DNA of 64,000 nt, taken from the NCBI RefSeq assembly GCF_963676685.1, contig NC_092347.1, forward strand, positions 6,262,001-6,326,000. Reading direction: 5' to 3'. Position numbers and translations under genes: made by a program. Positions 97-64,000 of this stretch are shown piece by piece. A model generated the notes under the pieces. That model ran no database searches. It was not told the DNA's origin and was given only the letters and a program-made list of their open reading frames with translations. Numbering within the stretch: position 1 is the first letter of the stretch; the number at the start of each line of letters is the position of its first letter. This stretch comes from Mytilus edulis. Lineage: Eukaryota.

Positions 97-594
97 GATG
101 ATGATACTGACAGTAGTTCTAAGTCTGGTCCTACAAACAAATTCCAATCTCGACGTGAAGTTACAAAAGGATTATACGATGTTGCTTTACTGATGGCAAA
201 TGTATCTCAGCTGAAATCAATCTTAGACTCAAAGGATAATACATACTATACGGCCCTTGTTTGTCTGCTTAGTTTCTCGATATCACTGCACCTGATTAGT
301 GCCATGTTACTCTACGTTTTGCTCATTATAGAGAAACAAACTAAGAACAAACAACAGCAGAACAGTGAGGGGATAAACAAGAAAGAAGGAAATCAAACGC
401 AGCAATCAACCCCGAAACAAACACCAGCTACTGAAAGTGTAAAAACTGCAGTATGTACAAACTGTTTTGCAGTAACACCGTCCTGTCGATGTTGGCAAAT
501 TTACAAAATTGACATAATTGCAACTTTGTGTGTATTTGGAGTAACAGTTATTAATATTTTTATTACAGCGTTTTACAGCAGTGTTAAAACGTAA
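97..594 (+). CDS. Ninjurin-family protein, paralogue 1, terminal coding exon (upstream exons lie outside the window)
   Basis: Acceptor tttcag at 91-96, phase 0. Reads DDDTDSSSKSGPTNKFQSRREVTKGLYDVALLMANVSQLKSIL...TM...IATLCVFGVTVINIFITAFY. DxALLMANxSQL and NIFITAF are ninjurin signature motifs. Confidence 0.88.
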   Translation, partial: DDDTDSSSKSGPTNKFQSRREVTKGLYDVALLMANVSQLKSILDSKDNTYYTALVCLLSFSISLHLISAMLLYVLLIIEKQTKNKQQQNSEGINKKEGNQTQQSTPKQTPATESVKTAVCTNCFAVTPSCRCWQIYKIDIIATLCVFGVTVINIFITAFYSSVKT

Positions 595-3688: not shown

Positions 3689-6600
3689 ATGCAAGGAATG
3701 GCTTCTTCTAAAACTGAAAGTGATCCTTTGGTAAGACATATGTTGATTATCTGTATGTTTTAATCAATAGTAAATATGGGCTTCATCATACGTTAGGTAG
3801 AAGCAATAATTTTACGTAAAACAATGGTTGTTTAAAGAAGACGAATTATTATCATATTGAAGAAAACGTAACATTCATCAATTTTTATCATTGTAAGCAT
3901 TTTGTTAAACCAAGTATGAGGGCTCCGAATTTAAAAAATATAAATCATGCATTCGTTAATTTAATCATACCAAATCTTTATTTGAATATTTTTTATCAGT
4001 TGATGTAATTCTTTGTTACAGAAACATGCACATGATGGCGGTTATGACAGCGATCAAAATACTTTACGCTCCCGAAATGTAAGTTTCATACTTGATTTAA
4101 TGTCGGCTAGTTATTAGCAATTTAGTCTGCAAAGTTGAAATCTTAAGAAAATCTAAAACAACATTTTTTTACATACTTATGGAGACAGGGAAATAATTTA
4201 TATTTGATTGATATATTTGTTTAATCCCACAGTTTTATAGGACGATAACAATTTTGATATGCATTAACTTTGGTCCCTTATATATATATGGTTGCAAGCT
4301 TTGGATAAAGAGGGATTACATGTAAACCTTGAAGGACGATGTGAACCATGGAGTAGCAACCATGTTTTATTGTACTCCTTGCGTAAGGTGTATGTAAGGA
4401 GTTATGTTATCTCTTGTTAGTTATAGAACTTGATAAAGTACAATCAAAATTCTGAAAATGTCCGCATCTTGTTTATATCTCTATTAGATTTTTTAGTAAG
4501 GAAACAAAGCATGAGTATCAAAAGTATGTAATTTATTTTTTACAATTAGTTGTTTATTCACTTTTCTCCTTTTAATAAATCAACAATAGAAGATCTGTTT
4601 TGTTTTTCAGTCGTCATTTGATAACAGTTCTACAAAAGTTGAAATGGTGAGTTTTTATTTTTATTCTCTAAAATCATTCAATCCTATCGATGTTTAGTGA
4701 AATAAACATTTTTTATCCATTCCAAAAAATGCATACTACAGACCTGAAGCATTTTATTAGTTGATGTATGATCAATATCGATACACTTTACCGTCGTCTT
4801 CCCGATTCATCGGGAAATGTGACGAATACAAAAATCAGAAAGCAACCTAAGGCCACCAATGGATCTTCGACGTAGAGCTAAACTAGAATCAGAGGCAGAA
4901 GAAAAAGACAAATAACGCATTTGATTGATTGTGCAAAATAGAAAAAACTACATGAATACCCATAAAATCAAACTTAAGAAGTGAGGCATTTTGTTTTATT
5001 TTCGGTTCAAATTCAATATCAGTACATGGCTGATTATATAGTGTTATAATAGTTTTTAACGCGTGACAGATACGTTATTAACTCTTTTTTAGTTCACGCA
5101 TGCTTACATTATGTTATACTATTGAATATTGATAGTTTTGCACTTTGAAAATGTAAAGATCTTTATTAGCTTACTTCCAATAACACGATAGCTTAAAATA
5201 TGAACAAATATCATTGAATTAAAAATTGTGTATTTAAAAAAAAATTCCTACATTTTAATGATAGAACTTTAGCAAAAATCAATAAGATAGATATGAAGTT
5301 AACTACAAGATAAAGTTAATTAAAGTTGTTATATGGATGATTGACTTTGATGGTCCTAAATACATGATATATGTGTCTTCCAAATCATTTGGTATCGAGA
5401 GTTTTTATACGCCCGTCAAAATTTTGACGGGGCGTATTATGGTATACAAATGTCCGGTGTCCGTCTGTCCGTCTGTCTGTCCGGCGTAAACATGTCGCAC
5501 CGTAACTTGAGAACGACTTATCTAAATTTCATGAAACTTAATATAGTTGTTTTTTATGATGGTCATATGATCTGTATACTTTTTGGTGAAAATAAGATTT
5601 AAACTTTTTGAGTTACGGCACTTTGTAACTAAAACAGGGGTGTGTTTTTTTTTCACTTGTTGCACCGTATCTCAAAAACGATTCTTGATTATTGCTTAAA
5701 ACTTTACACACTTCTTAGTTATATTAATTTTAATATCTGTATACTTTTTGGTGATGATTCAAAATTTCATTTTTGAGTTATTGAGTATTTTGTAAAAAAG
5801 GGGGAGGGTTTTTTTACATGCCGCGCCGTATCTCAAAAAGGATTTATGATTATTGCTTAAAACTTTACACACTTCTTTGTTATATTAATCGTAAGATCTG
5901 TATACTTTTTGGTTATGATTCAAAATTTCATTTTTGAGTTATTGAGTATTTTGTAAAAAAGGGGGAGTTTTTTTTTACACGTGCTGTATCTCAAAAACGA
6001 TTTATGATTATTGCGTAAAACTTTACACACTTCTTTGTTATATTAATCTAAAGATCTGTATACTTTTTGGTGATGACACAAATTTTATTTTTGTGTTATT
6101 GAGTATTTTGTAAAAAAAGGGGAGGGTTATTTTTACATGTCGCGCCGTATCTCAAAAACAATTTATGATTATTGCTTGAAACTGTTCACACTTCTTTGTT
6201 CTATTAATCTAAAGATCTGTATATTTTTTTGTTTGATTCAAAATTTTATTTTAGTTATATTTGTAATAAAAAAAAACAGGGTTTGGGGGGGGGGGGGGGG
6301 AAGGGGTTGGTTCACATGTCCCGCCGTGTCTCAAAAACAATAAATGGTTATTGCTTAAAACTTTCGCAGAAACTGTTTATGATTATTGCATAAAACTTCC
6401 ACTCAAGACGTCGGGCGTATCATGCGCTCATGGCGCAGCTGTTTATTAGAATATGTATCCAACATATTACAGATGGTGACACTAAAAACAAATCGTTTGT
6501 TATGCATATAACTCTTTCATTGCAATATGTTAAAACTATCGTTCAAAAATGAAACTTAAGAATCATTTATCTCTATTGTATTATAAATGTATCGTGAAGT

Positions 6601-8657
6601 ACAGTGGCATAAGGTCTCTTAGTTTGTAAGGATGATATTTTGAAACTCTGCTGCACCAGAGTGCTATGTTTTTATATACTTTATATAATTTTAGGAGCCA
6701 CCTCCTGCAGGCAATGATGAAGTAGAGGGAAGAACTCTCAATGTAAGTTTCAGTCCTTAAATCGTATAATTGATTAAATGATATATGCTATTATGATGTA
6801 TGCTATATCGTCTACCTATGCAACATGTCAGTCCAAAATGGAAGATTCTGATTTGTTTTTTTGCTATTTTGTTCTGAAATGTAACATACGATATTAAAAT
6901 AGCCATGAATTCATATTGGTGTCATTCACCAAAGAACCAGATAATCGACTTGTCGGGTTGAATTCGTATATTTTACATGATAGAAACAAATTTTTTCTTT
7001 GTTTCACCAGCACACTGGAAGATGACTTGGTAAGTTCGGGTTAAACTTATCTACGTCGGTTCATACATTATGAAGTCGCTTATATATATGTCTGAGTCAA
7101 AGTAATTAAGGCCGGATCAACGTTTTTGAGGTCCAAAACCTATGATAATAGGCAATTGTATTATAAGCTGAGCAGAGTGTTATAGACAGTGGGACGACGT
7201 ATGAGGCTAACGCCTCTTGTTGATATAAAGAGCCTCGAGGTGATACCTGGGCCTGTATAAAAATTTCCATTAATTGATATGTATAATATATCATACATGC
7301 TTTGGAATATATTTTACATATCCCAGAGGACATGTATTCCTTGTTACGCTCTACAGTACGGTTATACCTGAATATTTGTAAAGTGGCATAAGCTGTTAAA
7401 TAACCTACATTTGTACTAAAACGTATATTTAAATTGCATAAGTAAAAAAACCAACAATGAACAGTGCATGGATTAGTAGTTATAATGTATTAACATTTCG
7501 TGCGTATTTCAGAGTAGACGCTATTCAATTGTCCATTATGAAATCATAAATGTTAGATCTTGTATTCCATATGGTACGATTTTAAAATAAGAAATTGAAT
7601 GAAAATGTTAATGCTCATGATACGAAATGGCAAAATCATGATACGAAATTGTCATGTTTGGTACGAAATGGCAGTGGTACGAAATGGTTATGGTATGAAA
7701 TGAATAGCTACATATCTTAACGGTATCTAGCCATTTCGTACCATGCATTTACGATGAGAACATAATATTTCAATCAGTTTAATAAAGGTCTGGAGCTTGC
7801 AGTAGTGCCTTGTTTTTTAATCACAATACAAGATGTTTTATTTTCAAATTAAAAAAAATGGCATACAATGGTACGAAATGAGTAACATTTTAATCTTATA
7901 TATGGTACGAAATGATGTAGATTATAATCTCCCATATGACACAAATTGTTAACATTATAATATTCCACATGGTTCGAAATAGTATACATTACAATCTTCT
8001 ATATAGTACGAAATAGTCACGGTCCGAAATGATTTTTATTATGGTACCACATAGGTGTAACAAAATGGTTATGGTACGAAATGACGATGATTCATCTTAA
8101 CATACGTTTGAAGAAAGGCAACAGTAGTATACCGCTGTAATACTTTTCCGTAACAGTAATAGTATATTCTTTTTATTTAGGAAGATGAAACTGACAGTAG
8201 TTCTAAGTCTGGTGCTGTAAACATGTTCCAATCTCGATGTGAGATTACAAAAGGATTATACGACGTTGCCTTACTGATGGCAAATGCATCTCAACTGAGA
8301 TCAGTCATAGATTCTACAGATAATAAATACAAAACGGTCCTTATTGTGCTCCTTATTGCATCTATATCGTTACACCTAATAAGTGCTGTTTTTTTATATG
8401 TTCTATTCATTAAAGAAAAACAAGCTAAGAATAAACAGCAAGCAAATGAGAACAATAACATGTTACAGCCAACCGTGAATCGAAAATCATCTAAACGCAG
8501 AAAACAATCTGCAGTATGTCCAAAATGTTTTGTAGAAATCACATGCTGTCACTGTTGGAGAATATACATAACTGACATTATAGCAACATTGTGTGTCATT
8601 GCAGTAACAGTTCTCAATGTTTTTATTACAGCGTTTGGACACAACACAAAATCATAA
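3689..8657 (+). CDS. Ninjurin-family protein, paralogue 2 (about 219 aa, 5 coding exons)
   Basis: Exons 3689-3730 (MQGMASSKTESDPL), 4022-4078, 4611-4646, 6695-6742 and 8181-8657, all with AG/GT ends, all phase 0, frame open. Last exon has DVALLMANASQL and NVFITAFG and is a clear paralogue of 97-594. Micro-exon assignment is less certain than the last exon. Confidence 0.8.
5402..6445 (+). mobile_element. HINE/pearl-like non-autonomous Helentron element with internal ~160-bp tandem repeats, in a ninjurin-2 intron
   Basis: 5' hairpin atacgcccgtcaaaattttgacggggcgtat, (GTCY)n microsatellite at ~5455-5482, four to five ~160-bp units, subterminal gggcgtat inverted repeat and terminal palindrome tgcgctcatggcgca, T-rich flanks. 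Confidence 0.75.
7570..8090. repeat. Degenerate array of ggtacgaaatg motifs, probably a non-autonomous DNA transposon relic
   Basis: About a dozen (g)gtacgaaat(g)-like copies, one inverted near 7732. Confidence 0.55.
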
Positions 8658-11600: not shown

Positions 11601-13009
11601 GAAGAGTTCATTTTCTGCCCCATGGAAACAAATCATTATATTTGTGAACGAATACTTTTAATTGTTAAGATTTAATCATGTTATATATCCCTATTACATT
11701 TGTCATATGTTTATTTCATTATATGACACCTTTAATAGAAAATTAATAACCTATATGAATTGTTTATTAAAAAAATACAACTCTGGTACAATACTGGATC
11801 AAATTGTGCACAATACTGGTATACCAGTATTGCGAGCACAAACTACGGGAGAAAAAAAATAACATTATTTAGGTTGTCTACATAAAAAATCTTCGAACTA
11901 ACAGCTAAACTTCGAGCCCCTAAATCCCTTTCAAAAGATGACATCAACATCCATCTGACTAATTCGGCTCTAATAACTTAAAAATCGGAGTATGAAAGTG
12001 TTACTTCTTTATATTAGACTCCAACATCACCACAAAATCCTTAGAAATAATATATTGTTAGCTGGTCTCGATGTTCTACTTAACGTCATTCTAAGATTAT
12101 TTCTATTATATTTCTACAGACAAATAATGGTCTTCAACAATATTGTAATGAAGTTAATCAATCAGTGGTGTATACCAAATATGGATGCCTAACAATTCCG
12201 AAGACCAAATCCAAAATACTTGTATTTGCATTCATATGAGGCAGAATCGATACACTATATTTGCAAGGCCAAACAAAAACCAAGCTTGAATCTTGTCACT
12301 CAATAAGAAACATGTAAGTAACTGTTGGCACCTCATATAGCATAGTTAAAATGATGTGAAGGATGCTTCCAATACTAGCATTTCAGCCTCGCCCAGGCAT
12401 CTTTTTTTATAATATTGACACAGAAGAAAATCAAACAAGGACCAATCATATCATAATACCCAGTTTTTGAAGATTGGGGGCATATCTAGGTCAGACAGAT
12501 AAATGCACACAAAACACAATGAAGAGAAGAAATATCCCATCAAAGGTCAGTTTGTCTTATAATCACCAGCCCAGCAGTCAGCACAAATGTGTTGACATGA
12601 AGTATCATTGATATGGTCATAATTATAAATTAGTTTTTAACAGAGCCTTGAACTTTTCGCAATCACGTGATTAGAAAGAATATGAAGTGTTGTTACTCTC
12701 TCAACAAAAATATGGATTTCGGTTAGTTAAACAGGAGATTTTGGAGTAATATTTCGACAATTGTAAATACTTTTTGAGCTTATTGTCTGAATTTCGGAGA
12801 TCTTGAACTCATATTTGAAGTTTTTGATAACAACGAAACTATTATTTTCACTGAGACCTGTCCTGTATACCCTGGGGGAAAACAGTGTATATATTGAAAA
12901 CTGTTTATTAAACATTGAATGAAAGTGGACTTTGGACGATAGTAAAATCAACTGTTTTATAGTAAATTTGACCTTTTCACTTATAAGAACAACCAATCAT
13001 ATCAAAAGA

Positions 13010-13969
13010 ATGTCGATGAGCGATACGTCGAGGTTGATTAAAGAGAGCCAAAGAATATTTGACGCTTCCAATGATGTAAATCTGAACCCCGGCACATTGC
13101 TTAACATGATTTTTGAAATAGTTACGGGTATCGACTCTACAATGAGACGAATGGAAACAAGTATGGAGAAGCGCCTTGATGATTTGAAACAAGATTTCTT
13201 AACGGTGTCAGCTAGGGTTAGAACATTAAAAAACCAGGCGAGCGATGTCAACAAAAAGCTGTCAGACTGCGAGACTAGCTGCCAAGGTGTGAGCAATCTT
13301 TTCGATCAGGTATCTGGACAAGTAAAAACCAACAGACGTAATATAAACAATCATGATACGAGAATTAAGAAACTCGAAGACAACACCATCGTCCGACCGG
13401 GTGCTCCACCAGTCATCAATTCAAAGGAAATTGAGGCCTTAAAGGCAGCCATTCTTGACTTGCAATGCAGGTCAATGAAAAACAATCTTATCTTTACGGG
13501 ATTGCATAGAGTCCCGGGTGAAGATACGGAAGAGCTGTTGCGAGCTTTTCTATACGATGAGCTGAGGATCGACTACAATATCGAATTCGGTAATGTCCAT
13601 CGATTCAGAACAAAGGGGGAAAACAGAAGAGCACCAATAGTTGCAAGATTCCTATATCACCGTGATCTGGAATATGTTTCAGCAAATGCTACCAGACTAA
13701 AATGTAGACCATATGGAATACGGGAACAATTTCCTCATGAAATTGAACAAAAGCGGAAGGAACTGTATCCGGTGTTAAAACAGGCTAAACAGCAATATAG
13801 ACAAGCCTCTCTTGTGCGTGATAGGCTATACATAGACAATCAGCTCTACATTCCTGACACGGTATTAGAGGACAATAGAACGGAGCATACTGGCTCTTCA
13901 TCAGCAAACCATGACACGAGCCCAAAAGGGTCTTATTCTAGTGATACCCCTCCTAGCAAAAGACAGTGA
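13010..13969 (+). CDS. LINE ORF1p (coiled coil plus L1/Transposase_22-like RRM region)
   Basis: Heptad-rich N-terminus followed by DLQCRSMKNNLIFTGL, NVHRF, PIVARF, GIREQFP and RDRLYIDNQLY. Confidence 0.75.
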   Translation: MSMSDTSRLIKESQRIFDASNDVNLNPGTLLNMIFEIVTGIDSTMRRMETSMEKRLDDLKQDFLTVSARVRTLKNQASDVNKKLSDCETSCQGVSNLFDQVSGQVKTNRRNINNHDTRIKKLEDNTIVRPGAPPVINSKEIEALKAAILDLQCRSMKNNLIFTGLHRVPGEDTEELLRAFLYDELRIDYNIEFGNVHRFRTKGENRRAPIVARFLYHRDLEYVSANATRLKCRPYGIREQFPHEIEQKRKELYPVLKQAKQQYRQASLVRDRLYIDNQLYIPDTVLEDNRTEHTGSSSANHDTSPKGSYSSDTPPSKRQ

Positions 13970-14059
13970 CAGGGGCCGTCTCCTCGCCCACCGCACACAG
14001 ATAATTCACCAAATTCTGGCAGATAGGGGAATGGTGCAAGAGGACAACCTCAAAAGAAA

Positions 14060-17000
14060 TTGAAAAGTTATGAAACTGTGAATAAGAAATATACAATTAA
14101 CAATGATAGTTTAAATATTTGTTTCTTAAATGTTTGCGGACTTAAGAAAAGGCTATTGTCTCCTGATTTCATTGACATTTTGCTTGAACATGATATCTGT
14201 ATTTTTGTTGAAACGATATTAACTGATTTAGATAATTTAAACTTACCAGACGCTTATATTTATGTCACAAAAAATAGAAAAAATTTAAATAGTTGTTATT
14301 TATAGAAAGAGTTTAGAAAAAGAGTTGAATTTTTATAATACTGAGAGTCAATTTGTTTTATGGTTTCAAATTTCGAAATCAATTTTGTCACTTAATTAGA
14401 TGTAATTTTTGGTTGTGTTTATGTACCACCTGAAAATTCTAAGTATTCTACTATAGAAGCTTTTGAAGAAATGGAAAATGAATTGAATATCCTAACAAAC
14501 ACTGAAAATTGTTATGTTGCCCTAGTTGGCGATTTTAACTCAAAAACTGGTGAGTCAGTTGTTAGTATGTTTGGTTTAGAATATGATGCTGATATATTAG
14601 ATTATTTGTATGATTATGAAAATCTGACTCGAAACAAAATCACCTTACAAAGAGTGTCTCAGTGTACGTGTAGACCTAATCAGTATGGTCATAGACTGTT
14701 AGAGTTGTGCAGAAAAAATAATTTATATATTGCGAATTCAAGAGTTGGATCAGATAAAGATATTGGGGAGAAAACATGTAACGATTCAAGTGTTGTTGAT
14801 TATTTAATTATTTCATCAATGCTCTTCCCTTTGATTTTTTATTTTGAAATTGCTGACTTTATACCGTTATATTCTGATTGTCATTCTTTTATAAATTTTA
14901 GACTTCAGGCCAAATTTAGTAAATCAGATTCAATTGTTATCAACAATAGAAATGATAAAACATTTGTCAGGTGGAAAAGTGAACAGAAATCTGAATACGT
15001 TGATCGAATTCACAATGATCCCGAAGGTATTTTGACCACTGTTATGAATAAACTGGACGAATTGTCCGTAAATAATGATGCAACTCAAAATGATATAAAC
15101 AATATAGTTTTAGATATCAGCAAAAATTTTAAAGATGCGGCGGCAGAAACGTTTGGTAAAATAAATGAACATAAACATGTTTACAAACATGAAAATTCAA
15201 AACCTTGGTTTAATAGAAAATGCTCGATGAGTAGAATTTTTTTTCATAAAGCTCGAAAGAGATATAGTATTTTGAAAAATGCTGAAAACAGAAGTAAAAT
15301 GAGACAAGCTAGTAAAGAACATAAAATAACATTAAATAAAGCTTTTGCAAACTATCAACAGAGGGCTGCTGATGAGTTGCGGAACATTTCTAAAAAGGAT
15401 ACAAAAGCTCTAAGGAAAATCCTCAATAATCTTAATGATAGTAAAAAAAAAGATAACAATGACGATATATCTCTAAAAGCATTGTATGATCATTTTAAAA
15501 TACTAAATGAAACTGTTGAAACAGAAAATGATTTCGAACAAGATTTGGAGTTTGATACTCTATCAGACGATGTTGAGTTATTTTTAAACAGTCCAGTAAT
15601 AGAAGATGAAATTAAAAAAGTTGTTTCAAATTTTAAAAATGGCAAAGCTTCAGGTAGTGATATAATTTTAAATGAGTATATGAAATACAATTGACGATTT
15701 AATGCCAATTTACATTAAGCTATTCAATTTGATTTTAGATACTGGAATTGTCCCAGACAGTTGGTCTAATAGAATCATGATTACAATATTTAAAAATAAA
15801 GGATCAAGATTTGATCACGAAATGTAGAGGAATCACTTTGAATTCATGCTTTAGTACAACTTTTTCTGCTATGTTGAATTACAGGTTAAATAATTATGCA
15901 GATTACGTAGACCTGATTTCAAAGTCCCAAGCAGGTTTTCGTAGAGGATTCTCTACTGTTGATAATATATTTGTATTGTATTCTTTAATTACTGTATATT
16001 TTTCATTTGGTAAGAAGCTATTTTGCACTTTTCTAGACTTTAAAAGCGCTTTTGACACTGTATGGAGGTCAGGATTGTGGCAAAAAATGCAAAAATCAAA
16101 CATTAAAGGTAAACTATTTAATGTTATCTATAATATGTATCAAAATATAAAAACATGTGTCAAGAAAGGAAATGAATTTTCTGAATTTTTTATATCTCAT
16201 ACAGGAGTAAAACAAGGTGAAAATCTATCACCTTTTTTATTTTCTTTGTTTCTAAATGATTTAGAAAGTTACTTTGTGGAAAATAATATAGAAAGTCTAG
16301 ATAATATTTCAAAGCTGTGCTTGGAATCATTAGAAATATATGTTAAATTGTTTATTATACTGTACGCAGATGATACTGCGCTATTGTCTGAAAGTGCAGA
16401 AGGATTACAAAAAACCCTTGTATGTTTTGAAGAATATTGTAAAAAATGGAAACTTAAGATTAACACAAGCAAAACCAAAGCAGTGATTTTTAGTAAAAGG
16501 AAAGTAAAAAGAAATCAGAATTTTATGATATATGGAGAAAAAATTGAAATAGTTGATTTCTACTGCTACCTTGGTGTACTTTTCAATTACAACGGTAGCT
16601 TTTGTACTGCACGAAAAAACTTCTTGATCAGGCACAGAAGTCTTTGTATGCTCTATACCGAAAAATAAAAAATATATGTATTCCCGTCGATTTGCAGCTA
16701 AAACTTTTTGACTCATTGGTTAGTCCTGTTTTATTATATGCTTCAGAGGTATGGGGATTTGAAAATAAAGAAAGCATTGAGAAAATACACCTTCAATTTT
16801 GCAAAAAAACATTTTGAAATTAAGAAGCAGTACACCAAATTATATGGTGTATGGGGAACTCGGAAGGTTCCCTTTGGAAACCATTGTTAAACGTAAAATG
16901 GTGTTGTTTTGGAATAACTTATTATCAGAAAATAACAAGTTATCTTCCATTATGCACAAATTAATGCTTAAATTACATTTTCAAAACCCCACAAAATTTA

Positions 17001-19477: not shown

Positions 19478-22400
19478 TCACCGTTTTCTATTTCTAAGAT
19501 TGTATGAATCCCTTGAAGAGTTATCTTCCTTGACTGGTTCATCTGTAATTTTCTCTGTTCTCTTAGGTCCTGATATACACCTGTAGGCAAACAGTTGTGG
19601 TACAATAAGTAAAGCAATGTTGATAATCCAGAAACAATACTGGGCTGCTGGTGTAGATGGAATACGATAATTGGCTGCTGTCCTGCTGTGTTGGGCTGTT
19701 GTCAGGTACACAAATTGGGCCTACAAAAAAAACAAAAGTTTTTCTTTTTAATTTTTATCATAAACTTATTATAGATACCTGGATTTAAAATTTGACAGCT
19801 GCCATTTTGTCTACATAAAGAATCATCAGTGATTATTTAATTTTAATATCAGCTAGTTTTGTCAGTATTCCTTAAAAAATATCAAAGATTTAGAACAAAT
19901 AATAGTTCCAATGTTACATGTGTAAACTATACAGAATATTTCCTAAAACACAGTAAGAAATACTCACTACTGTATATAAAATTTGGTATGATTGCCAATG
20001 AGACAACTCTCCGCAAGAGACCAAATGACACAAAAATCAACAACTATAGGTCACAGTACGGCCTTCTATAATGAGCAAGGCCCATACCACATAGTCAGCT
20101 ATTTATAAGCCCAGAAATGACAATGATACATTTTTATGATTATTTATATTTCTTTTTTAACGCTGTATCAATGGCATGATATGCACTTCATAATTCTTCA
20201 TCATAAAAATACATCAATGTGTATCATATCAATAACTTGTCTCACTTCAAATTAAATGCAAAATGTTTCGACAATTGTTTTAAGGTGCAGGAAAATATGG
20301 AATACAAATTTCAAGTATTCAAATAAATAAAATAAACATTTTTTTCTCTCTACATAATTTATGTAAATTTTATTCATTTATTGTGACTGTATTGCACAAT
20401 ATCAATAAACATTCAATCATCAAAATAATGTTTAATTATTCATCAAATCTGTTGTATTGTTAATGATTACCTTTTTGTTTCATTTTTTTCTGATAAAATA
20501 TGGCTTGCAGGCAGGTAAGGGCTGTTCTCAAAAATACCATGTCCCCCAGGGAAAGCAATTTTTAAAAACTTTTATGTGGGTGGTTGTATTTGAAATGCCA
20601 AACACAAAGGGAGTGTTGTTCTAATCTATTTTTATTTCTGTGGGTGGAAGGAGTTTAAAAAAAGGGCTGTCCCTTGGGGGAAATAGTATTTTCTGGAACA
20701 CGCCTTAGAATGTGTTGCCTTATCGTAATATAAATACTAGACATTAAGAAATTAATGTAATGTTTTTATATAAATGTGAAAAATGCAACAGCATCTGATT
20801 TGCAAAAATAAAAACACAATGTATGATGTTAATACATGCTTGTTTTAAGTTTTATAAGTATTGAAAAATCATGTGCATTAATTTTTATGTATCATTGCAA
20901 ATCCTTCCATATCTGGCCAAGTGAAAAATGTAAACTCAATAGGAAGGAGCCAACCAATTATTACAATCAAAAAAAGGAAATAAGCAATAGGATTTTAATC
21001 CATGTCCTGTTTGTCATAAAGGATGTTGAATCTATTTTGATCCAGAACTGCTTCAATTGATATTTGTAAAGTGAATATTAGCAATGAACTTTCATTCATG
21101 AAAGTGAAACTTTGATAAGAAGGTCATATTTAGTTAAAATGGAAATACCAATCATACAACAGTTTTCTTTTTCTCAGAAACAAACTTAAACATACTAAAA
21201 TAATTACATTAGATGTATGTTTCATTACAATATGTTATTCTGATTGGCTAACTGCACATCATGTGTTATTCCGTAAGCAGTTGTTTCACTCAATAAAACT
21301 TCTCATTCATGATGACACGAGGTCCCACAATAAAGTGCACAGGTAAATGAAATAAAAACTTGATAAAAGGCGTGTTTTCATAATCCTATAGGTAAAAATG
21401 TAATTATAAGTATTGAATGCTTTTTTTTGTAACTTTATAGGGTTGTAAAAGCGTTGACCGTGCGCACATTTTAAGTATGAAGCGCTTCCGCGCTTCATAC
21501 AAAATGTACTTCGGTCAACGCTTTTACACCCCAATAAATTTACAAAAAAGAGCATTCAATTCTTAAATATATAATTTATATAAATCCAATAGGGACCCAT
21601 TGTGGACATGATAAAAATGTCTTGTCTCACCTGTGCAGCAGCCCCAGCATGAAATACAGCCAAATCTTTCATCAAACCATTAGTTGGTCCAGGATACAAT
21701 AATCTATAGATGGCATACACATAATAAGGCAAGAAGTAAAACAGGTATACCAACATCTGAAATAAAATACCAAACTTCTTTTCATCACTCATAATTAATT
21801 TATGGCATTTTCAATCTTAACACTTAAATAGGTCCTCCAATATATAATTGGGTGACTTAATTCAAACCATGATATTAAAGTTAATGCTAAATGAATGCTT
21901 TCAATCATTTAGGAGAGGATTATTCTGCAATTTTACCTGAATTAAGTTTTTTATCCTCAACGGATTATAGTTCTTAGCACGCCTTATCCTTGCGTGTAAG
22001 AATATAGTCCGTTGCCGGTCAAGGTTAAATGTTATTATTAAAGTTATCGAGAATGTAAACATAGAATTATATTGAAGGAATGGACAATTTCATCCGACTT
22101 TACAGCGATTTAGGAATATAAAGCAGGTAAAATGCAGTTACTAATGAAATGTAGTATTAATAACAACTGAAAAACAAATGATGTTTCCCGAATGCCACAT
22201 GTTGGCGGAATTTCATAATACAAAATAGGAAACTGTCAATTTTGCCGTGAACAATATTTTCGGCTAAACAAAACTATAAAAATATTATTAAACGTTCATA
22301 ACACCTGTCATAACATTTATGGTATTATAGTTACTTACAAGGGTGAAGAATCATTTTAGTAGATCTGAAATGTGAGCTGTCAAGTTTTAAATTAAAAAGA

Positions 22401-25400
22401 ATGTCAATTCATACTGATTGATTGATTGTTGGTATTTTAATGCCACTTTTGGACTATTTCATAGTGGTCAAGTTTTTATTTGGTGGTGGAAGCCAGAGTG
22501 CCCAGAGGAAACCACTGACCTTCGATAGGATATCTGACAATGCCAATTCATACTAAAAACATTTAAGTTTAGGTAAAGAAACTTGATTTTTAGTTCAATT
22601 TTTAACAATTGTATTACCTGCATCTTTGGAAAAGATGTATCTTCAGCTAAGAAGGGTTCAAAGTCTTTGAGGTAGTTCTTTGCCATATCATGTTTACAGT
22701 CTAAGGTTACCTGCAGATAAAACAGAAAGAATTTAAATAATTCTATTTTTTAAGTAGTTAAATATTATAGATTCATTTAATTTTATGTGTTTCTCTCAAA
22801 CCCAAACAAATTGTAAGAAATTCATATCTTTTCCATATTGATATTATACATATGAGGAGATTTAAAGTAAGCAGACAGGAATATCATTTTGTTGTCACTA
22901 TTATGCATCCCATTAGGCTATAAACCAAAATAATAAAAACATAATGATTTCTTTTAAATTTCTCACTACAATTACTTACAGCAGCTCTGAATGCATTAAC
23001 CACAATGCAAGTGGCAAAGAAAAGAATAAACAACATTTCTACTGGTCCTTTTTTCACTCTGGTCCCTATGGATGTCAATACATTTCTCCTGCTCGCCTAA
23101 AAAATAATTGTAGTTTATTTCAACACTTTGCATATTATACATTTGTATGCCTTTTTTCAAAACTTGTGCTAAATAATAGTAGCAAACGTTTATGTGTGAA
23201 ATGATGATATTCACTTCCCCTAGAAAAATGTCACAGGGTACATGTTGACAAAAACCATTTTCGAAATTAAAATGTGAACAAATCTTTATTTTCAAAATAA
23301 AATAACATTTTTCCAATGTCCAACAACAATGAACATATTTCATCTGTCCAAGGGCAATAATTCAAATATATATTTATCTGCAATTCATAAATTTTTCGTT
23401 TGGTCTTACTGGCAAATATTTTAAATATCATTGATAGGACCTTTTACTCAAAAATATTAGTCAATTACCAGTGCAACACAAGGCATTTTCATGTCCACCA
23501 GCATTAATTTATTAATTAAATGCATGCTACTTCATTCATACAACCAAACAATTGCCATGTTTTTCTTGTAAAAGTAGTTGCAAAACTCCAGTAAAAGTAG
23601 TTGAAAATATCTGCAAAACTGATTATAAAACATTGACTTAGACATAAAATTGCTAACATACACCTTTGATTAAAATTTGTTAAAATCTGACAAGAAATAT
23701 AGATTTAGAATTGCTTCCATTGCCATTTTCCATAGAATGTTTTTATTTACACAGTAAACTTACCGAATGAGAACTCAATACTTTGAATAGGATGTATAAT
23801 GGTATAACTACATAAGGCACATTCAGGAGAATAGACCATTTTGGACCATATTTCCCTGCAAGAATAAAAAAAAAAAATCAGTATTTAATTAAGAATCTTG
23901 TGAGATTCCAACAAGTTCTACACACAATGACACAAATGTGTTTTCAAATCAAGCATAATGAGACAATGACAAAAAATACCAGACAACTAGAGGTCAACGT
24001 TCAGTCTTCAGTTGTCTTACACAACAAAGAAACTGTTTCAATTTCACTTTATAGATGTTGATAGTAAACCTTTAGAACTTAAACTGTTAAACTGTGTTTA
24101 ATCAACACTGTAGAAAAGTACCATCATAATAATTGTTTGTGAAATGTTTTGTACTAGTAGAAACAGCAATGATTTCATTCAAAGCAATTATATCATAACT
24201 GAAAGTATTAAATACAGACTTTGTACAAAGTGAACAGTTTAAACATGACACTAAATACAATGCTTGAAACCTGAACTTAATGAACATAAGACATAAATAA
24301 TAACATATACAGTAACCATTCAGTGGTTGTCATTTGATGCCGAATTTCGTAGTTGTTTTTTGCTTATTGTTCGGTACATAATTAATAACACCATTTGTTT
24401 TCTGATTTGAATTGTTTTAAATTTGCAATTTTAGGACTATTTATAGCTAGCTAACTATTTACTCATTCTTTAAATTCAAAATTCCCAATTACTCTATTTA
24501 ACATGTTTAAGTCCCCAACCTTTAATATTCATAAGTTAACCTTCATTTAATGTATCCCTAATATTTCAAAACATTTTTAAGAAAAACACCAGGAAAACAT
24601 TATTTTCAATTTAAATCTAAATAATTTCAAAATACCTATGGCTCCTCCAGGTACCAGTACAGCTACACTGTTTATGATAGAACCACACCAGTACAAACAT
24701 GCAAGTCTGTATTCTTCACTGAAATTAAAATCAATAGTAGAGTAAAATCATTCTATACATTTGGTACAAAAATAAATAGAATACCTGTAATATCAATGTC
24801 ATTGCATGCAATGTAGAATTCATTTGTCATCTTTCATGTCTTTGATCATTGTTGATGAAGATGAAGACAGCAATGTAACAATATAGGTAATCTATCAAAT
24901 TATAGTTGCTTCATTCTAATAGATATAAGAAGGTGTGGTATGTGACCTCAGATAAGGTGAGCGCACACCTCGTCATATTGCATGTATTATAGACATTTAA
25001 ACTGTAGGGTCGCCAAAGGATCTAAATACCTTTATCAAATAATATGAATTACTAGCAGAGGACTAAACAGGTACCTTGTGTGTTGATTTAAATGTTGAAT
25101 GCATAATGTGGATTCATTATTATTGGTTGGATACCAATTTTCGTGGGTTTTGTGGGAACAGGTGAACCACAAATTCAAATGTTCCAACGAATTTCAAATT
25201 TTCTAAAAGTCTTTGTATGCAGAGATTTGCAAAACCACGAAATCAAATATCCACGAAAATGCAAGTTGTCCACAATCCACGAAAATTGGTACCCACGTAA
25301 AATAAATGAATCCACAGTAAATACTTTTTTTCTTCATGGCACCTGCATGTACTTTACTCGATGACTTTATTAAAGGTACATGATTCAGTATTATTACCAA

Positions 25401-28400
25401 CATAAGTATTGCAGTTGCCCACGCTGTTATGAAAATGATTCTATTTGATAAAATACTAAAAAACAAATCTACATTATGATCAGTAAAATATGAATGATAT
25501 CATTAGTTAGGAAATGTATAAATAGTTGTGTTGCAGTGTTTTATTCAAGCAATTTTACTACCAAGACATTTCAACATGTTCAACAATAGTTTGTTAAAGG
25601 GTTTATTTTCATTCACTGTAAATTCAGGAATTATTGAAATGTTTTTATTATTGAAAAAAAGCGACAGGGTTATTCATCGTACATTGTAATCGTAATAATT
25701 TTAACTTGCATTTTGAAAATTTTTGTATGATTTAAATGGATTTTTCTCAATATTGCAAAAATTAAAATCAGTCTAAAATGACAAAATCGCAATAATAAAT
25801 GCACACAAGAATTTCTAAATTTACAGTACCATGCTTGAAAGTTTTATTCCATTTTTTTTCATGCTGTAACATTAGTACACATGTAATCAGCTTTTTTTCA
25901 TGCACACAGTCATAATCCCAAATCTTTTAAACAATTCCTGTGCATCTTAAAATCATTTTGAATTTCATGTTTTTCATGTTTTTCATGCATATCTATGCCT
26001 TTTCCATGTGTAACATTTTTTATCACACAACTATATTTACAACATGCAAAATGTCTGCTTATGAAGAAGTTTAATTCATCATCCACAAAACTGTATTTTT
26101 CCTATCAGAATACCAGTACAATGTATTTGGTCATAAACAAATCCTGTTCTAGTTTATCAACATGTATTCAGAATTTAAAGATCTAACATGATGAAAGAGT
26201 CCAAAACAGAAAAATAAAATGGACATAGAAGTCTCCAGTCACAACTGTTTAGGAATGAAAGGGACTTTATTGCTGAAAAACTTTTAACAAGAATTCAAAG
26301 TTTTTGCAACCAATGGACTTCCAAATACAAAATGAAATACAATGAAATAGGCAGATACCCTTCAAAATAAACTAAGGAAAGAGTTTCCAAAAGCCCAGTT
26401 TAATCTGTATTGAGGTAAAATGCGGTTCAACAGAAATATCAATTATCAGTCAGAGCTCAGACATAAACAAGTCGATTTTTGTTTTTGACTTAAAGAAGTC
26501 AAAACATGTATTTATCATAAAAATGTGTTTTCAATTTTAGACTTATCTAGGTCATAAAATGACAGACTTGTATAGGTCCATTTATGTTGATGAAAAAACT
26601 TAATTTCACTTGGTGGCCAAACTACACAACCTATGACAGCAAAAACCTGTCTGAGAGTTCACAAGGACTTGAGCTATCTATATGTAATTGTCTAATTGAA
26701 CATCCTTACTAAACACAGATGTTTTTCCTCATTAAGTGTAGTTCCAGGTGGTTGCATTGTAAGGTTAATTAACATTATCTCCGATTTTTCAGACTCTCAT
26801 TCATATTTTTCTTTACAAGACAAAGCATTGTCTTTCAATGTTGTCATTATTTGATTTAGATGCATGACCTCCTTATAAATATGCGTGGGTCTTGAAGTTA
26901 ATCAATTTTGATCACTTATCGACTTGTAGGAGTCGATATTTGCAACTTTTTGATTCTGGTCAATTATTTCTTGCTTAACAATATTTGACTTATTAAAGTC
27001 GTATTTTGTCTTGCATTAAAGGGGGACAAATCCTAAATCTTACAAATTTAGACCTCTATGAGTCAAAAGCAGATTCAGACTTATTTATGTCTGAGCTCTG
27101 ACTGATTATAACATGTATAAAGGATTCGTAGCTTTTTATGAAAAAATTTCAGAACTGAAATAATTCCTCTCATAAAACATTTGTGTAAAAGGTACATCTG
27201 GTTTTGTATGTTGTACACTTTAATATACATGTATATACTTACTTATATCTACTTCTTGACATGATAAACATGTACAATGCAAAATGTACTGAACCATCCC
27301 AATAACAAATGGAGGTCCCATGTGGGGTTTTCAGGTAAGGTTCCCCTTGCAAGAGGTAGAAATGTAGATATCTACCGAGATAGCCATCATTCTCAAGGGC
27401 AATAACTACATCAACCATGGAGGAAAACAAAAGAATGCTCCATGCTACAAAAAATATTGAGTTTGGATTTAATATGTTCAAGCTCATATATAATTCTACT
27501 CAAGACAAAGAAATTTTCTTTTTATGCACAATACATGTACATGTATGTAAAAAACTAAACATGCTGTGAGGGTACAGACCATATACAGACAAAGATCAGG
27601 CATGAAGATCACCCATGAAGATCACACATGAAGAAAAGATCATGCATGAAGATCACCCATGAAGATCACACATAAAGAAAAGATCATGCATGAAGATCAC
27701 CCATCATGCCCATGAAGAGGCATTTTTCTTTTAACCAAATCTGCTCCTAGAACAACCAGAAGTAAAAATGTACATGCAATTTTCATATAAAACTGTTAAC
27801 CCAATTTTCATGCATAATTTAACTTTTCAGCATGTAAACATAGAAACAACTGATGTTAATTCCAATGTAGATGCACAGATTTCAAAATGTGAAGGTTTAT
27901 GCTTCTTTTGAGTTGGACATGTTGGATATACAACTTCAAAACTGGAATGCAGTTGCATAAGTCATATGTACCTATAGTTCACATTTTATCAAATTGTAAT
28001 TAAAAACATTTGATAGACAACTTTTAGGCAAAGTTATTGTGTAGACGTACTTAACAATGGAAAAGAGGAGTTTATTGTAAGTGACCATGGTAACTAGAGA
28101 ACCCCAATCTCAACTATAAGAAATAATTTCCAAATCAACAATAGCCAGTAGAAAAAAATATTTGATGATCTCATTCTGAAATACATGACCATGATGAGTA
28201 GTTAAAGAAGAGATACAGAACTAAATGTTACAAGCAGATACAGTCTGTGATATTGATAAGTACAACCACATCAAAGGTTAGGTAATATGAAATTCACAAT
28301 ACATGCAAACACAACATATACAGGATATATATGGAGTACAGTGAGGCCTCTCTTGAATGAAATTCTATTTTACATTGTTAATGTTATTGCATATTGGTCT

Positions 28401-30000
28401 CATATAGCATGTATAACAATAATACTATGAGCATGATGAATCAGGGAGAAGTTGGAAATTTCAAAGAACCATGCAGTTACACAGCAAAACAAAACATCTA
28501 CAAGCCAACATCTGGTATCAGACACATAATTGTCAAGATCTGAATCGCCCTTTGCTTGACTCTATTGATTATAGTAATGAACTGAAAGCATGTACAATGT
28601 ACCTGTCTAAATGTATTTAAATAGAGGGTAAATCTATAATCTCCTTTTCAAAGAATTCCAAGATATTGCTGAAAGAATTTATGAGAAATGAAAAAAAATA
28701 ATTACTTTAAAAATTTACTCTTACTAAACTGAGTTGATGCAGACATGATAAAGTGATACTGGATGATAGGCCAAGCTTAGACTTACTCATAAATTTTCCT
28801 TGACAGAATAAATAAAACCAAAGCAAAGTGTATGGTACCATCCCAGTAGTTGATCATAGTTCCAAAAGGAGTTTTCAGATAAGGTTCTCCCTGCAGAAGG
28901 TAGAAATGCATGTATTTCCCAATGTAACCATCATTCTCTAAGGCAACAGTTGTATCCACTAAAGAAGCAAAAAGGAAAATACTCCAAACTGAAATGTATA
29001 AATAAACAAACATGAGGTGCATTGTTCTTCATGTACATGTAGTAATGATATACAACTTTTAAGCATAGCCAAAAATCCATGGAGCTTACAACATGTACAA
29101 TTTCAAAATTCAAATAGTTATAAGATGTCATAATAAAAAATTCTGCGCCCTGAAAAAGTTATCAACATTTCAAATTTAAGTGACAAAACTGATTTGAAAT
29201 AAAGAGCACTAGAAAAAATAGTCATGTCCGTTAAGTCTGTCGGTCTGGTAACTCCATCCATCCCATAACTCTGCCCCTTTACTCTCTTGTGCCTTTCTTC
29301 CAAAATTATTTCGTCTGCTATATTATTTTAACTTTAGACATGTTAGAGAAGAAACCCGTTTGTTTACATCAGATCAAAGGGAGACAATGCAAGTAGATAC
29401 CCATGAAAAAGAAAAGTGCAAAACACTACATTTTCCAACTTTAAATTAGGTCATTATATGGTTTTCAAAAGTCATTTTCGGCTACCATTAGCGTCAAATT
29501 GGTTAAAATTTTACTGTGATGTACTTAAAAATATCCTTATCGTTATTCAACAGAGGTCTTAAATAAATATCGTTAGAGTCATTTAGGTGTTAAAATCATT
29601 CATTTTTTTTTATCATCTAAACGAAAGTGTACATTTTATTGTCATGCACCAAAAATAATTAGTTAACGTCATTTGACAAGAATTTTTTTACCATTATTTG
29701 TCATGAAGGTACCCCCAAAAATTATTTACTACCCTCAAGATGGCATAACAACATGAAACCATTAAGTGAAAAAATCTCATTTAGAGAGCAGGAATATTTA
29801 CCGTTGTAAAAAGGGTCATGTTTTGGTGGACCGTCACTGAAATACAACCGAGGTACCAGGAAAACGACAAGCAGAGACACGACGCCTACTGCAAATATTG
29901 CTGCTGCATTGTCTACTCCACCAATCACTTTCATCAACAGTAGAATGGGAAATGCTAAACATGCTGAAAGGACTGACACCTGAAATCTTGTTAATACCAT
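19478..30000 (-). CDS. TM6SF1: Transmembrane 6 superfamily (TM6SF1/2-like, two EXPERA domains), about 384 aa
   Basis: Exons 30000-29802, [28988-28787 or 27444-27243], 24718-24636, 23855-23764, 23096-22980, 22710-22618, 21756-21631 and 19720-19478 total 1155 nt in frame with GT/AG ends. Motifs LENDG, GEPYLKT, YWDG, LYWCGSI, LLNVPY, FPKMQMLVYLFY, FHAGAAAQAQF, HSRT. Symbol is nominal (likely co-orthologue of TM6SF1 and TM6SF2). Confidence 0.9.
21412..21560. repeat. Long imperfect palindrome (~70-bp arms), terminal hairpin of a non-autonomous element, in the last TM6SF intron
   Basis: attgaatgc...tgtaaaagcgttgaccg...gtatgaagcgcttccgcgcttcatac...cggtcaacgcttttaca...gcattcaat. Confidence 0.7.
26447..27104. 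mobile_element. MITE with ~25-bp TIRs and 5-bp TSD (ATTAT)
   Basis: cagtcagagctcagacataaacaagtc ... gacttatttatgtctgagctctgactg, with ATTAT on both sides (26442-26446, 27105-27109). Confidence 0.8.
27243..27444 (-). CDS. TM6SF alternative exon 2B (202 nt, mutually exclusive)
   Basis: ttgtag acceptor, gtaagt donor, phase 1 to 2. WSILLFSSMVDVVIALENDG...ICYWDGSVHF. Confidence 0.85.
28787..28988 (-). CDS. TM6SF alternative exon 2A (202 nt, mutually exclusive)
   Basis: tttcag acceptor, gtaagt donor, phase 1 to 2. WSIFLFASLVDTTVALENDG...INYWDGTIHF. Confidence 0.85.
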
Positions 30001-30474
30001 TGCGCTTTATATTTTATCTTCATACGAGGCGATGTTATCGTATGATATCAATTTCTGACCGCGTCCTACTTTTTTGAATATATATCTAATTACTTCTTAA
30101 TTTTTAATGTGTATTTGGCTATTTATAAACGCATACTTGATTAAATGGGTATAAAGTAAACTTGTGTCAATGACGGGTATGGAATTCCTTTCCGGAATGA
30201 ATTCCGTATTTTACTAAAATAACTATACTTTACATTTCTCTAGCTCTTCCTACTTTAAAGTAAAAAATTGTTGCCAGTTTAATGACTATAAAAATAAAAG
30301 TGCATATCATTCACATTTAAAAGTGGTTAGTTAGAAAAAGAAAACTTTTGAAAACTTAATAAACTTTTAAAAGTTTCTTATTAGCACATTTAAGGTAATC
30401 TTGATAAGTAAAGGTATAGTTTACTATGTAATTAAGTTATTATTATAACCAGCTGGTGTAAGTCAGATATCATA
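30001..30474. promoter_or_regulatory. Putative bidirectional promoter and 5' UTRs of TM6SF (-) and SWEET (+)
   Basis: Divergent ATGs 474 bp apart (30000 and 30475). ETS-like ttccgga near 30190, candidate UTR donor gtatgg at 30177, acceptor ccag at 30452. Confidence 0.55.
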
Positions 30475-62150: not shown

Positions 62151-62347
62151 ATGGCAAATAAACCAAAACTAACCCCAAACACACTGGGTTACACTAACAC
62201 AACTTATAGAGAAAAAATGACACAGATGAGTGAACAGGAAAAGATAATTGAAGAAAAGAAGAGAAAAATTCTTGAAAAAATGAAGGCAGATGAAATAGCT
62301 GCAGTGACAAAAAATTCAGCAGCAACACCTACTTCTACACCACCAGT
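62151..62347 (+). CDS. SUGP1: First coding exon of a probable SURP and G-patch domain protein 1 (gene continues beyond the window)
   Basis: Strong acceptor ttttttcag at 62128, good Kozak (caccATGG), donor gtaagt at 62348. KMTQMSEQEKIIEEKKRKILEKMK resembles the recalled SUGP1 N-terminal helix (ILHQEELIAQKKREIEAKM). Exon is well supported; identity is tentative. Confidence 0.55.
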
Positions 62348-64000
62348 GTAAGTTATATGTTAGCCCTACTTCTACACCACCAGTGTAAGTTATATGTTAG
62401 CCCTACATCTACACCTCCCGTGTAAGTTATATGTTAGCCCTACTTCTACACCACCAGTGTAAGTTATATGTTAGCCCTACTTCTACACCTTCCGTGTAAG
62501 TTATATGTTAGCCCTACTTCTACACCTCCTGTGTAAGTTATATGTTAGCCCTACTTCTACACCACCAGTGTAAGTTATATGTTAGCCCTACTTCTACACC
62601 GCCAGTGTAAGTTATATGTTAGCCCTACTTCTACACCACCAGTGTAAGTTATATGTTAGCCCTACTTCTACACCACCAGTGTAAGTTATATGTTAGTCCT
62701 ACTTCTACACTGCCAGTGTAAGTTATATGTTAGCCCTACTTCTACACCCCATATGTTAGCCCTACTTCTACACCACCAGTGTAAGTTAAATGTTAGCCCT
62801 ACTTCTACACCACCAGTGTAAGTTATATGTTAGCCCTACTTATACACCGCCAGTGTAAGTTATATGTTAGCCCTACTTCTACACCGCCAGTGTAAGTTAT
62901 ATGTTAGTCCTACTTCTACACCGCCAGTGTAAGTTATATGTTAGCCCTACTTCTACACCGCCAGTGTAAGTTATATGTTAGCCCTACTTCTACACCGCCA
63001 GTGTAAGTTAAATGTTAGCCCTACTTCTACACCTCCTGTGTAAGTTATATGTTAGCCCTACTTCTACACCTCCCGTGTAAGTTATATGTTAGCCCTACTT
63101 CTACACCACCAGTGTAAGTTATATGTTAGCCCTACTTCTACACCGCCAGTGTAAGTTATATTATATGTTAGCCCTACTTCTACACCTCCCGTGTAAGTTA
63201 TATTATATGTTAGCCCTACTTCTACACCTCCCGTGTAAGTTATATGTTAATACATCCTTTAACACCTCCTGTGTAAGTTAGATGAAATAGCTGCAGTGAC
63301 AAAAAATTCAGCAGCAACACCTACTTCTACACCGCCAGTGTAAGTTATATGTTAGCCCTACTTCTACACCACCAGTGTAAGTTATATGTTAGCCCTACTT
63401 CTACACCGCCAGTGTAAGTTATATGTTAGCCCTACTTCTACACCGCCAGTGTAAGTTATATGTTAGTCCTACTTCTACACCGCCAGTGTAAGTTATATGT
63501 TAGCCCTACTTCTACACCACCAGTGTAAGTTATATGTTAGCCCTACTTCTACACCGCCAGTGTAAGTTAAATGTTAGCCCTACTTCTACACCGCCAGTGT
63601 AAGTTATATGTTAGTCCTACTTCTACACCGCCAGTGTAAGTTATATGTTAGCCCTACTTCTACACCACCAGTGTAAGTTATATGTTAGCCCTACTTCTAC
63701 ACCGCCAGTGTAAGTTAAATGTTAGCCCTACTTCTACACCACCAGTGTAAGTTATATGTTAGCCCTACTTCTACACCGCCAGTGTAAGTTATATGTTAGC
63801 CCTACTTCTACACCACCAGTGTAAGTTAAATGTTAGCCCTACTTCTACACCACCAGTGTAAGTTATATGTTAGCCCTACTTCTACACCGCCAGTGTAAGT
63901 TATATGTTAGCCCTACTTCTACACCACCAGTGTAAGTTATATGTTAGCCCTACTTCTACACCGCCAGTGTAAGTTATATGTTAGCCCTACTTCTACACCA
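62330..64000 (+). repeat. 37-bp tandem array (40+ copies, runs off the window) spanning the exon end and 5' splice site
   Basis: Unit cctacttctacaccRccaGT|gtaagttatatgttagc. The first unit is the real exon end. Confidence 0.97.

Follow-up and report, generated by a model that had tools for sequence, protein, structure and literature searches.

In the accessible parts of the articles on NINJ1, mouse NINJ1 is described as a resting dimer in which a pocket of S46, E49, D116, N119, and N120 takes up Y41, K44, and residue 45 (PMC11711097), and the trigger that converts the resting dimer into a membrane-cutting filament is considered still open (PMC12547243). Killing by the mouse protein is lowered by K45Q and raised by K45R, a gain-of-function mutation (PMC11711097); the accessible parts of two further articles report that K45Q abolishes lysis by NINJ1 and that NINJ2 is non-lytic (PMC10307626, PMC12547243). 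A nanobody that recognizes the resting state binds residues 33-38 of mouse NINJ1 together with the cytoplasmic loop at residues 105-112 (PMC11711097). The corresponding loop of turbot ninjurin is reported, in the accessible text, to be poorly conserved (PMC12799870), and bivalve ninjurins are mentioned in transcript lists, once as an entry in a table (PMC6281612) and once in a single sentence (PMC7578350). In the literature covered (main texts rather than supplements, few of the subscription papers, and the 20 best-ranked papers of broad searches), no description was found of a mollusc ninjurin loop or of a Cys or metal module in any ninjurin. The accessible parts of PMC13144334, PMC13217791, PMC11121540, and PMC9950082 describe no such loop or module, and those of PMC13591262 make no mention of palmitoyl, zinc, cysteine, invertebrate, evolution, or Drosophila.

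Two tandem ninjurin genes, both on the forward strand, are present in the window, i.e., the entire 64-kb stretch of Mytilus edulis DNA that was analysed (Table 1). Paralogue 1 (P1) is represented by its last exon, with the upstream exons lying to the left of the window edge, and its 165 residues are 100% identical to M. edulis ninjurin-2-like X1 (P0001). Paralogue 2 (P2) has five coding exons with GT..AG borders throughout and a 216-aa CDS, which matches M. galloprovincialis P0015 in 208 of 216 residues. The mollusc origin supposed in the initial annotation is supported. The ninjurin identity proposed there for both was borne out by scores for PF04923 (Ninjurin) above the gathering cut-off of 26 bits (P1, 62.7 bits, E 3.3e-17; P2, 53.0 bits, E 3.4e-14) and, for P1, by a predicted TM1 followed by a two-helix hairpin. 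No third copy was found in the window among the listed tblastn matches of nine homologue queries. In M. trossulus (P0007, P0009-P0011, P0014), a single annotated locus carries P2-type 5' exons and a last exon of either the P1 or the P2 type, representing either alternative terminal exons or merged gene models; an annotated isoform of M. californianus (P0013) ends in the linker, ahead of the Cys cluster and alpha4.

Table 1. Features of the ninjurin locus and of the remainder of the window
Feature	Positions	Strand	Basis and remarks
P1 terminal coding exon	97..594	+	Entire ninjurin domain, 165 aa + stop; AG acceptor 95-96; RNA contigs begin at 97
P1 amphipathic TM1 (alpha1/alpha2), residues 15-43	139..225	+	AF2 helix, residue mapping; Arg at K45 position (154-156), Asp at D53, Asn at N60
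P1 alpha3 membrane helix with polar cytosolic extension (predicted), residues 51-96	247..384	+	AF2; hydropathy peak 55-79
P1 polar linker, disordered, of varying length and composition	385..453	+	pLDDT <50 over 101-117; six anchor spacings in clade
P1 CxxC-x6-CxC-W cluster, Cys120/123/130/132 and Trp133, capping the alpha4 N-terminus	454..495	+	Translation, AF2, homologues
P1 alpha4 membrane helix, residues 131-164	487..588	+	AF2; aligns with NINJ2 122-151
P2 coding exon 1	3698..3730	+	Junction 3729/3730-4022 in 3/4 runs; translation
P2 exon 2	4022..4078	+	GT..AG junctions
P2 exon 3	4611..4646	+	GT..AG junctions
P2 exon 4	6695..6742	+	Junction 6742-8181 in 4/4 runs
P2 terminal exon	8181..8657	+	Ninjurin domain, 158 aa + stop; Cys at K45 position (8238-8240)
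P2 CxxC-x5-C-C-x-C-W cluster, four conserved Cys and one extra	8517..8558	+	Translation
LINE-like element, broken	12923..16668	+	Reverse-transcriptase domain (PF00078); 348-aa coiled-coil ORF upstream
Several hydrophobic exon-like ORFs	21556..30006	-	Two alike (27239-27499, 28783-29028); no Pfam match on fragments
Tandem array, 99 bp	34226..35603		344-aa ORF 34604-35638 is a by-product of the array
Exon of SWEET/MtN3 (PQ-loop) sugar-transporter-like gene	37445..37714		PF03083, E 4.7e-07
Tandem array, 91 bp	47688..48149		
LINE-like element, broken	52605..54975	-	Reverse-transcriptase domain (PF00078)
Tandem array, 37 bp	62328..63999		

The hydrophobic ORFs on the reverse strand suggest a duplicated membrane-protein gene, presumably reminiscent of TM6SF/EXPERA proteins. 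Between and inside the ninjurin genes, the contig depth summed over two stretches, 1765-3234 and 5293-6468, is very high in each of the four sequencing runs, marking abundant dispersed repeats.

The loop is present in the mRNA of both paralogues. Four of 20 runs containing the stretch (X1, X2, X4, and X7, of which X2 and X7 are presumed to be RNA) were compared with the window. The P1 loop is spanned without a skip by contigs of three runs (97-1143 in X1, 97-1499 in X4, and 97-628 in X7), with only fragments of the exon in X2, and the P2 loop by contigs covering 8181-8800 in X1, X2, and X4, with overlapping pieces in X7. Spliced junctions of the upstream P2 exons occur in the same runs (three or four of the four). 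The combination of contigs unbroken across the loop with spliced P2 junctions in the same runs identifies them as transcripts and the loop as coding; the contigs carry no information on expression level, tissue, or induction. A retained intron or mis-annotation was ruled out, because contigs cross the loop and the P1 exon has one donor-like site (365) but no acceptor-like site, that of P2 having neither. Contigs of X1 and X7 contain an allele with an in-frame 9-base deletion at 8445 in the P2 linker, and those of X7 a slightly longer end of P2 exon 4 (6739-6742); among the indels listed (all but 18), none falls within the motif.

The length of the insert was determined with two anchors, human Q91 (P1 H65) and N119 (P1 D139), which agree with the residue names in PMC10307626 and PMC11711097; in the following, plus positions count residues after the Q91 position and minus positions residues before the N119 position. 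The anchors are 28 residues apart in the human protein, which is typical of short ninjurins, but 74 apart in P1 and 67 in P2. This spacing and the human loop at residues 105-112, cytoplasmic according to the accessible text of PMC11711097, agree with the short human loop of the initial annotation. Its mussel loops of ~60 and ~55 aa are indeed long (positions 331-510 encode 60 aa in P1, and the equivalent in P2 has 53 aa), but the stretch is partly helical in the model, so that the true insert, judged by the anchored spacing, amounts to 46 aa in P1 and 39 aa in P2. The ranges initially assigned to the cluster (454-495 and 8517-8558) do begin with the first Cys and end with the Trp, whereas the motif strings quoted with them cover 448-504 and 8511-8567. 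The Cys codons start at 454, 463, 484, and 490 in P1 (Trp at 493) and at 8517, 8526, 8547, and 8553 in P2, where a fifth Cys at 8544 had gone uncounted.

The AlphaFold2 (AF2) model of P1, built on a 144-row alignment, has helices at residues 15-43, 51-96, and 131-164 (mean pLDDT 72), with residues 101-117 disordered and a pLDDT of ~59 in the Cys block. As modelled, P1 is in the unkinked three-helix resting fold, with the amphipathic TM1 followed by the two-helix membrane hairpin. The top five Foldseek rows are NINJ1 or NINJ2 (best match, 9BIA; E 0.016, probability 1.00, TM 0.72 on target), and the sequence match to the solved NINJ1 and NINJ2 splits in two around the loop. The Cys module had no match in Foldseek searches with the P1 model, where ninjurins alone appeared at E < 1, or in VIA-align, which returned generic helical bundles for the module within the whole model; an ESM Atlas search with residues 75-165 yielded ninjurin clusters only, with scores under 0.8.

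Word-based searches and a full HMM search (best 150 of 1056 listed) yielded 363 proteins, of which 50 were assigned to the clade of P1 and P2 (the window clade) by their alpha3 signature. Four Cys and the Trp are invariant in all 44 members anchored by script (28 distinct loop strings), and the motif is also present in three members read by eye (P0255-57) and one found by its motif pattern (P0258). Overall, CxxC-x6-CxC-W is kept in 48 of the 48 clade relatives that reach alpha4, down to 43% identity; P0013, P0021, and P0044 end before alpha4. In a set of 22 distinct loops, 2-5 residue types occur at each of the six spacer positions and the linker comes in six lengths, while the four Cys, the Trp, and an Asp at position 0 are invariant; the fifth Cys is present in eight. 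The initial observation in two paralogues, that the Cys and their spacing persist while the linker diverges, thus extends to the relatives in the clade. A chance motif was ruled out, because only 21 of 200,000 shuffles of the 60-aa stretch give the spacing and the motif recurs in homologues. For the 16 codons of the motif, comparison of P1 with P2 yields a dN/dS of 0.27/0.30; apart from the Cys, strong constraint is not apparent, the codons being too few to decide.

Taxonomically, the exact spacing is narrow. All named carriers belong to five Mytilus species. The clade as a whole, whose most distant members have 43-57% identity, resolves as a single branch (SH-aLRT 95; 18 of 18 rows) when a quick tree is computed from cores without the loop, with 93 columns and 113 of 144 rows (every second short-loop row dropped). 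A pan-mollusc or pan-metazoan distribution was ruled out for the exact spacing, as Cys is absent from -20 to -5 in all 83 rows of P0259-P0342 that lie outside the clade and could be anchored (69 short, 14 long; one further row unanchored; best 120 of 630 matches; mainly fish, also clams, unionids, and gastropods). The narrow clade belongs to a wider set of bivalve ninjurins with long loops, in which Cys and His are arranged differently.

Like P1 and P2, ninjurins of oysters, of a second Mytilus family, and of Pinctada (e.g., P0031, P0050, P0228, P0023) combine a long loop with a Cys cluster before alpha4; they are annotated at their source as ninjurin-like or uncharacterised. Oyster type A (Magallana, Crassostrea, Ostrea, Saccostrea) has CxCxxC at -12/-10/-7 and oyster type B has C-x4-C-x-H-C, whereas the second Mytilus family adds to the type-A CxCxxC a separate run of 2-4 Cys at -27 to -30, and Pinctada has two CC pairs. 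The CxxC of the oyster and second Mytilus types straddles the alpha4 N-terminus and often reads C-P-H-C, presumably reminiscent of thiol-oxidoreductase motifs. Members of the second Mytilus family (P0228-P0236, P0240, P0242-P0244, P0247, P0251) share invariant His at +12 and +17; one is labelled TMEM55 at its source yet carries a Ninjurin domain. Cys-7 and a His at the Q91 position are common to the oyster type and both Mytilus types. Oyster types A and B and the second Mytilus family form their own branch (support 92), separate from the window clade, so that Cys clusters may have arisen more than once. Long loops without a Cys cluster occur in land and freshwater snails and a sea slug (P0024, P0027, P0029) and in clams and unionids (P0034, P0261, P0266, P0268, P0273), and short-loop ninjurins are also kept in molluscs (e.g., Haliotis and Mactra rows). 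In alignment A4, at least three Cys at -20 to -5 are present in 56 of 81 long-loop vs 0 of 63 short-loop rows, a contrast inflated by searches seeded with Cys-bearing queries.

Evidence bearing on the nature of the cluster comes from alignment A5, which comprises 52 relatives outside the window clade, many of them alleles, isoforms, or near-copies. Where oyster-type A/B rows contain three Cys (-7, -10, and either -12 or -15), a His follows at +21 in 31 of 33 cases; the other two rows carry an additional Cys instead (at +22 and +16), and all three rows without Cys-7 are also without the His. Rows of the second Mytilus family, with the same three Cys, have His at +17 (13/13), and those of the Pinctada type have Cys at +21 (3/3); the background frequency of His in A5 loops is 1.4%. 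In P0248, a degenerate second-Mytilus row outside A5, the loss of two Cys coincides with that of both His. By contrast, none of the 28 distinct loops of the window clade has Cys or His at +17 or +21. A set of four candidate Cys/His ligands is thus reached either way, by three Cys and a His of the alpha3 extension in the oyster and second Mytilus types and by four Cys in the window clade, on separate branches of the core tree.

A four-ligand count reached by different routes fits, on general grounds, a tetrahedral metal site and not palmitoylation; His cannot be S-acylated. Positions +17 and +21 share one helical stripe (260 and 300 degrees), and hairpin symmetry about human loop 105-112 is estimated to place +17 to +21 level with -10 to -14. 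For oyster P0055, AF2 puts His164 inside the alpha3 helix (129-170) and the beginning of alpha4 at 190, between Cys189 and Cys192; the Cys block is modelled with low confidence (pLDDT ~55). The cytoplasmic location of the NINJ1 loop (PMC11711097) disfavours stable disulfides. A predicted dimer with two Zn (score 0.01, alignment unused, no contacts given) bears neither way on Zn. Many rows are near-copies, and the independent gains or losses number only about three to five. The His/Cys pattern stems from a separate branch of the core tree, so that convergence is possible and the pattern would not necessarily hold for the window clade. The ligand spacing differs from group to group, and a metal site leaves the invariant His at +12 of the second Mytilus type, on the opposite helix face, unexplained. 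A His at +23 was ruled out as a ligand in the window clade, being missing from 12 of 28 distinct loops, including P1 and P2, and located on the opposite helix face. Taken together, the comparisons make a putative metal site more plausible than palmitoylation or redox chemistry, the other two options of the initial annotation.

On balance, P1 and P2 are ninjurins with an ordinary core and, somewhat more likely than not, a Zn-capped cytosolic extension of the hairpin. Helix alpha3 would run on into the cytosol and give way to a floppy linker, and the four Cys ahead of alpha4 would coordinate a single metal ion tetrahedrally, in all likelihood Zn2+; the resulting knuckle would cap the N-terminal end of alpha4 where it meets the membrane surface. 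In the oyster and second Mytilus relatives, three Cys and the His of the alpha3 extension may do the same job; with ligands from both the Cys block and the alpha3 extension, the metal would clamp both ends of the hairpin. The cytosolic side of the module is presumed from the topology of NINJ1, and metal binding and the identity of the metal from sequence patterns. The insert replaces loop 105-112, which in the mouse resting dimer contacts the beginning of TM1 of the other subunit; from this position, the insert could act on the dimer and might stiffen the hairpin and bias the switch between resting dimer and filament. An effect on oligomerisation or lysis is speculative, as is the role in innate immunity proposed in the initial annotation, and there is only a slim chance that the module gates rupture.

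Compatible with the putative metal site, which it would not replace, is the rather doubtful alternative that the module is an add-on without a role in rupture, the Cys cluster of adhesion, signalling, or non-lytic paralogues binding a cytosolic partner. It is favoured by the remodelling of the resting-dimer pocket and of filament residues in the window clade (D116 to Tyr, N120 mostly to Ile, Q91 to His, G95 to Ala) and by the retention of short-loop ninjurins in molluscs such as Haliotis and Mactra. The K45 position, where Gln abolishes lysis by NINJ1, is Gln in 9 of 14 oyster-type (type-A) rows. In the window clade, however, this position is Arg in 14, Cys in 2, and Ser in 1 of 18 rows, Arg being the gain-of-function residue of mouse NINJ1, and all 18 rows retain D53, A59, N60, T123, N133, F135, and A138, with K44 and K65 remaining basic. 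Of the K45-D53 salt-bridge pair, D53 is thus preserved; at the filament interface, I134 is Ile or Val. P1 has Arg at K45 and P2 has Cys, as do P0015 and at least five cluster members (P0014 has Ser); because residues 45 touch in the mouse resting dimer, the Cys of P2 could cross-link or weaken a filament bridge. To consider P1 active and P2 non-lytic would be an extrapolation from single mutants in a different background.

Membrane-edge Cys beside Trp or Tyr are a usual position of acylation. A further, unlikely reading is that the cluster is mainly an S-acylation (palmitoylation) patch by which the long loop is held to the inner leaflet, with effects on trafficking, stability, or the choice of lipid domain. 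Cys-7, -9, and -10 directly precede alpha4 at the membrane edge, and Cys-7 and -9 lie within ~10 residues of a membrane helix, presumably on the cytosolic side as in NINJ1 (PMC11711097, accessible part). Acylation would also agree with the free gain and loss of the fifth Cys, with the CC, CCC, and CCCC runs of varying size in the second Mytilus family and the Cys pairs of Pinctada, and with the absence of a Cys spacing common to all groups. It leaves unexplained, however, the His beside the three-Cys clusters, the swap of His for Cys, and a CxxC-x6-CxC spacing that remains fixed at 43% identity while the spacer diverges fully. In a mixed case, four ligand Cys could be accompanied by an optional, acylated fifth. 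A thiol redox switch, in which a CxxC at a helix N-terminus would sense the oxidative burst, with or without release of Zn, and alter the hairpin or dimer, is very improbable: it is favoured by the CxxC straddling alpha4 in the oyster and second Mytilus types and by the disulfide control of a pore-former, the Trichoplax gasdermin (PMC12547243, accessible part), but the window clade has CxC nearest the helix and CxxC nine residues upstream, the residues within CxxC vary freely, and there is no thioredoxin-like fold.

The bivalve ninjurin variant with a presumably cytosolic Cys or Cys/His module is real, expressed (as judged by contigs), conserved, and undescribed within the scope of the literature covered. 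It points to an expanded, unstudied family of cell-death or adhesion genes in farmed mussels and oysters, and the gain in annotation would be modest if acylation or lineage-specific stabilisation were all that the module provides. The mussel and oyster versions of the module offer a testable clue to how ninjurins might be restrained; with a natural Cys/His loop module beside the resting-state epitope and Arg, Cys, Ser, or Gln at K45, they are ready variants for the coupling of loop and dimer. In its boldest and quite improbable form, the Zn-capped extension would be a pteriomorph latch, clamped by Zn through several ligand sets at the surface of the resting dimer, whose loss of metal by oxidation or by Zn flux during infection or stress releases or locks the hairpin, making it the first ligand-gated ninjurin; P1 would then be a latched hair-trigger executioner and P2 non-lytic or dominant-negative.

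The solved ninjurins among the structure matches returned are all short-loop proteins with no built-in regulatory module. Human and mouse NINJ1 (filaments 8CQR, 8SZA, and 8UIP; resting dimer 9BIA) share with P1 and P2 the PF04923 domain, the order of helices, and D53, A59, N60, T123, N133, F135, and A138, whereas the mussel proteins differ from them in the wider anchor spacing, the predicted cytosolic extension of alpha3, the four-Cys cluster, and the changes at K45, D116, N120, Q91, and G95. Human NINJ2 (8SZB), the best PDB sequence match (E 7.3e-12), shares a Trp six residues before the N119 position; in VIA-align, it matches the P1 model with Z 10.9 and an rmsd of 4.4 over 101 residues, tied with unrelated helical bundles. 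Unlike those of P1 and P2, the loop of NINJ2 is short and lacks a Cys cluster. The residue in contact with cholesterol is F117 in NINJ1 and Q103 in NINJ2 (PMC12547243); this position is occupied by Lys in P1 and by Ile in P2.
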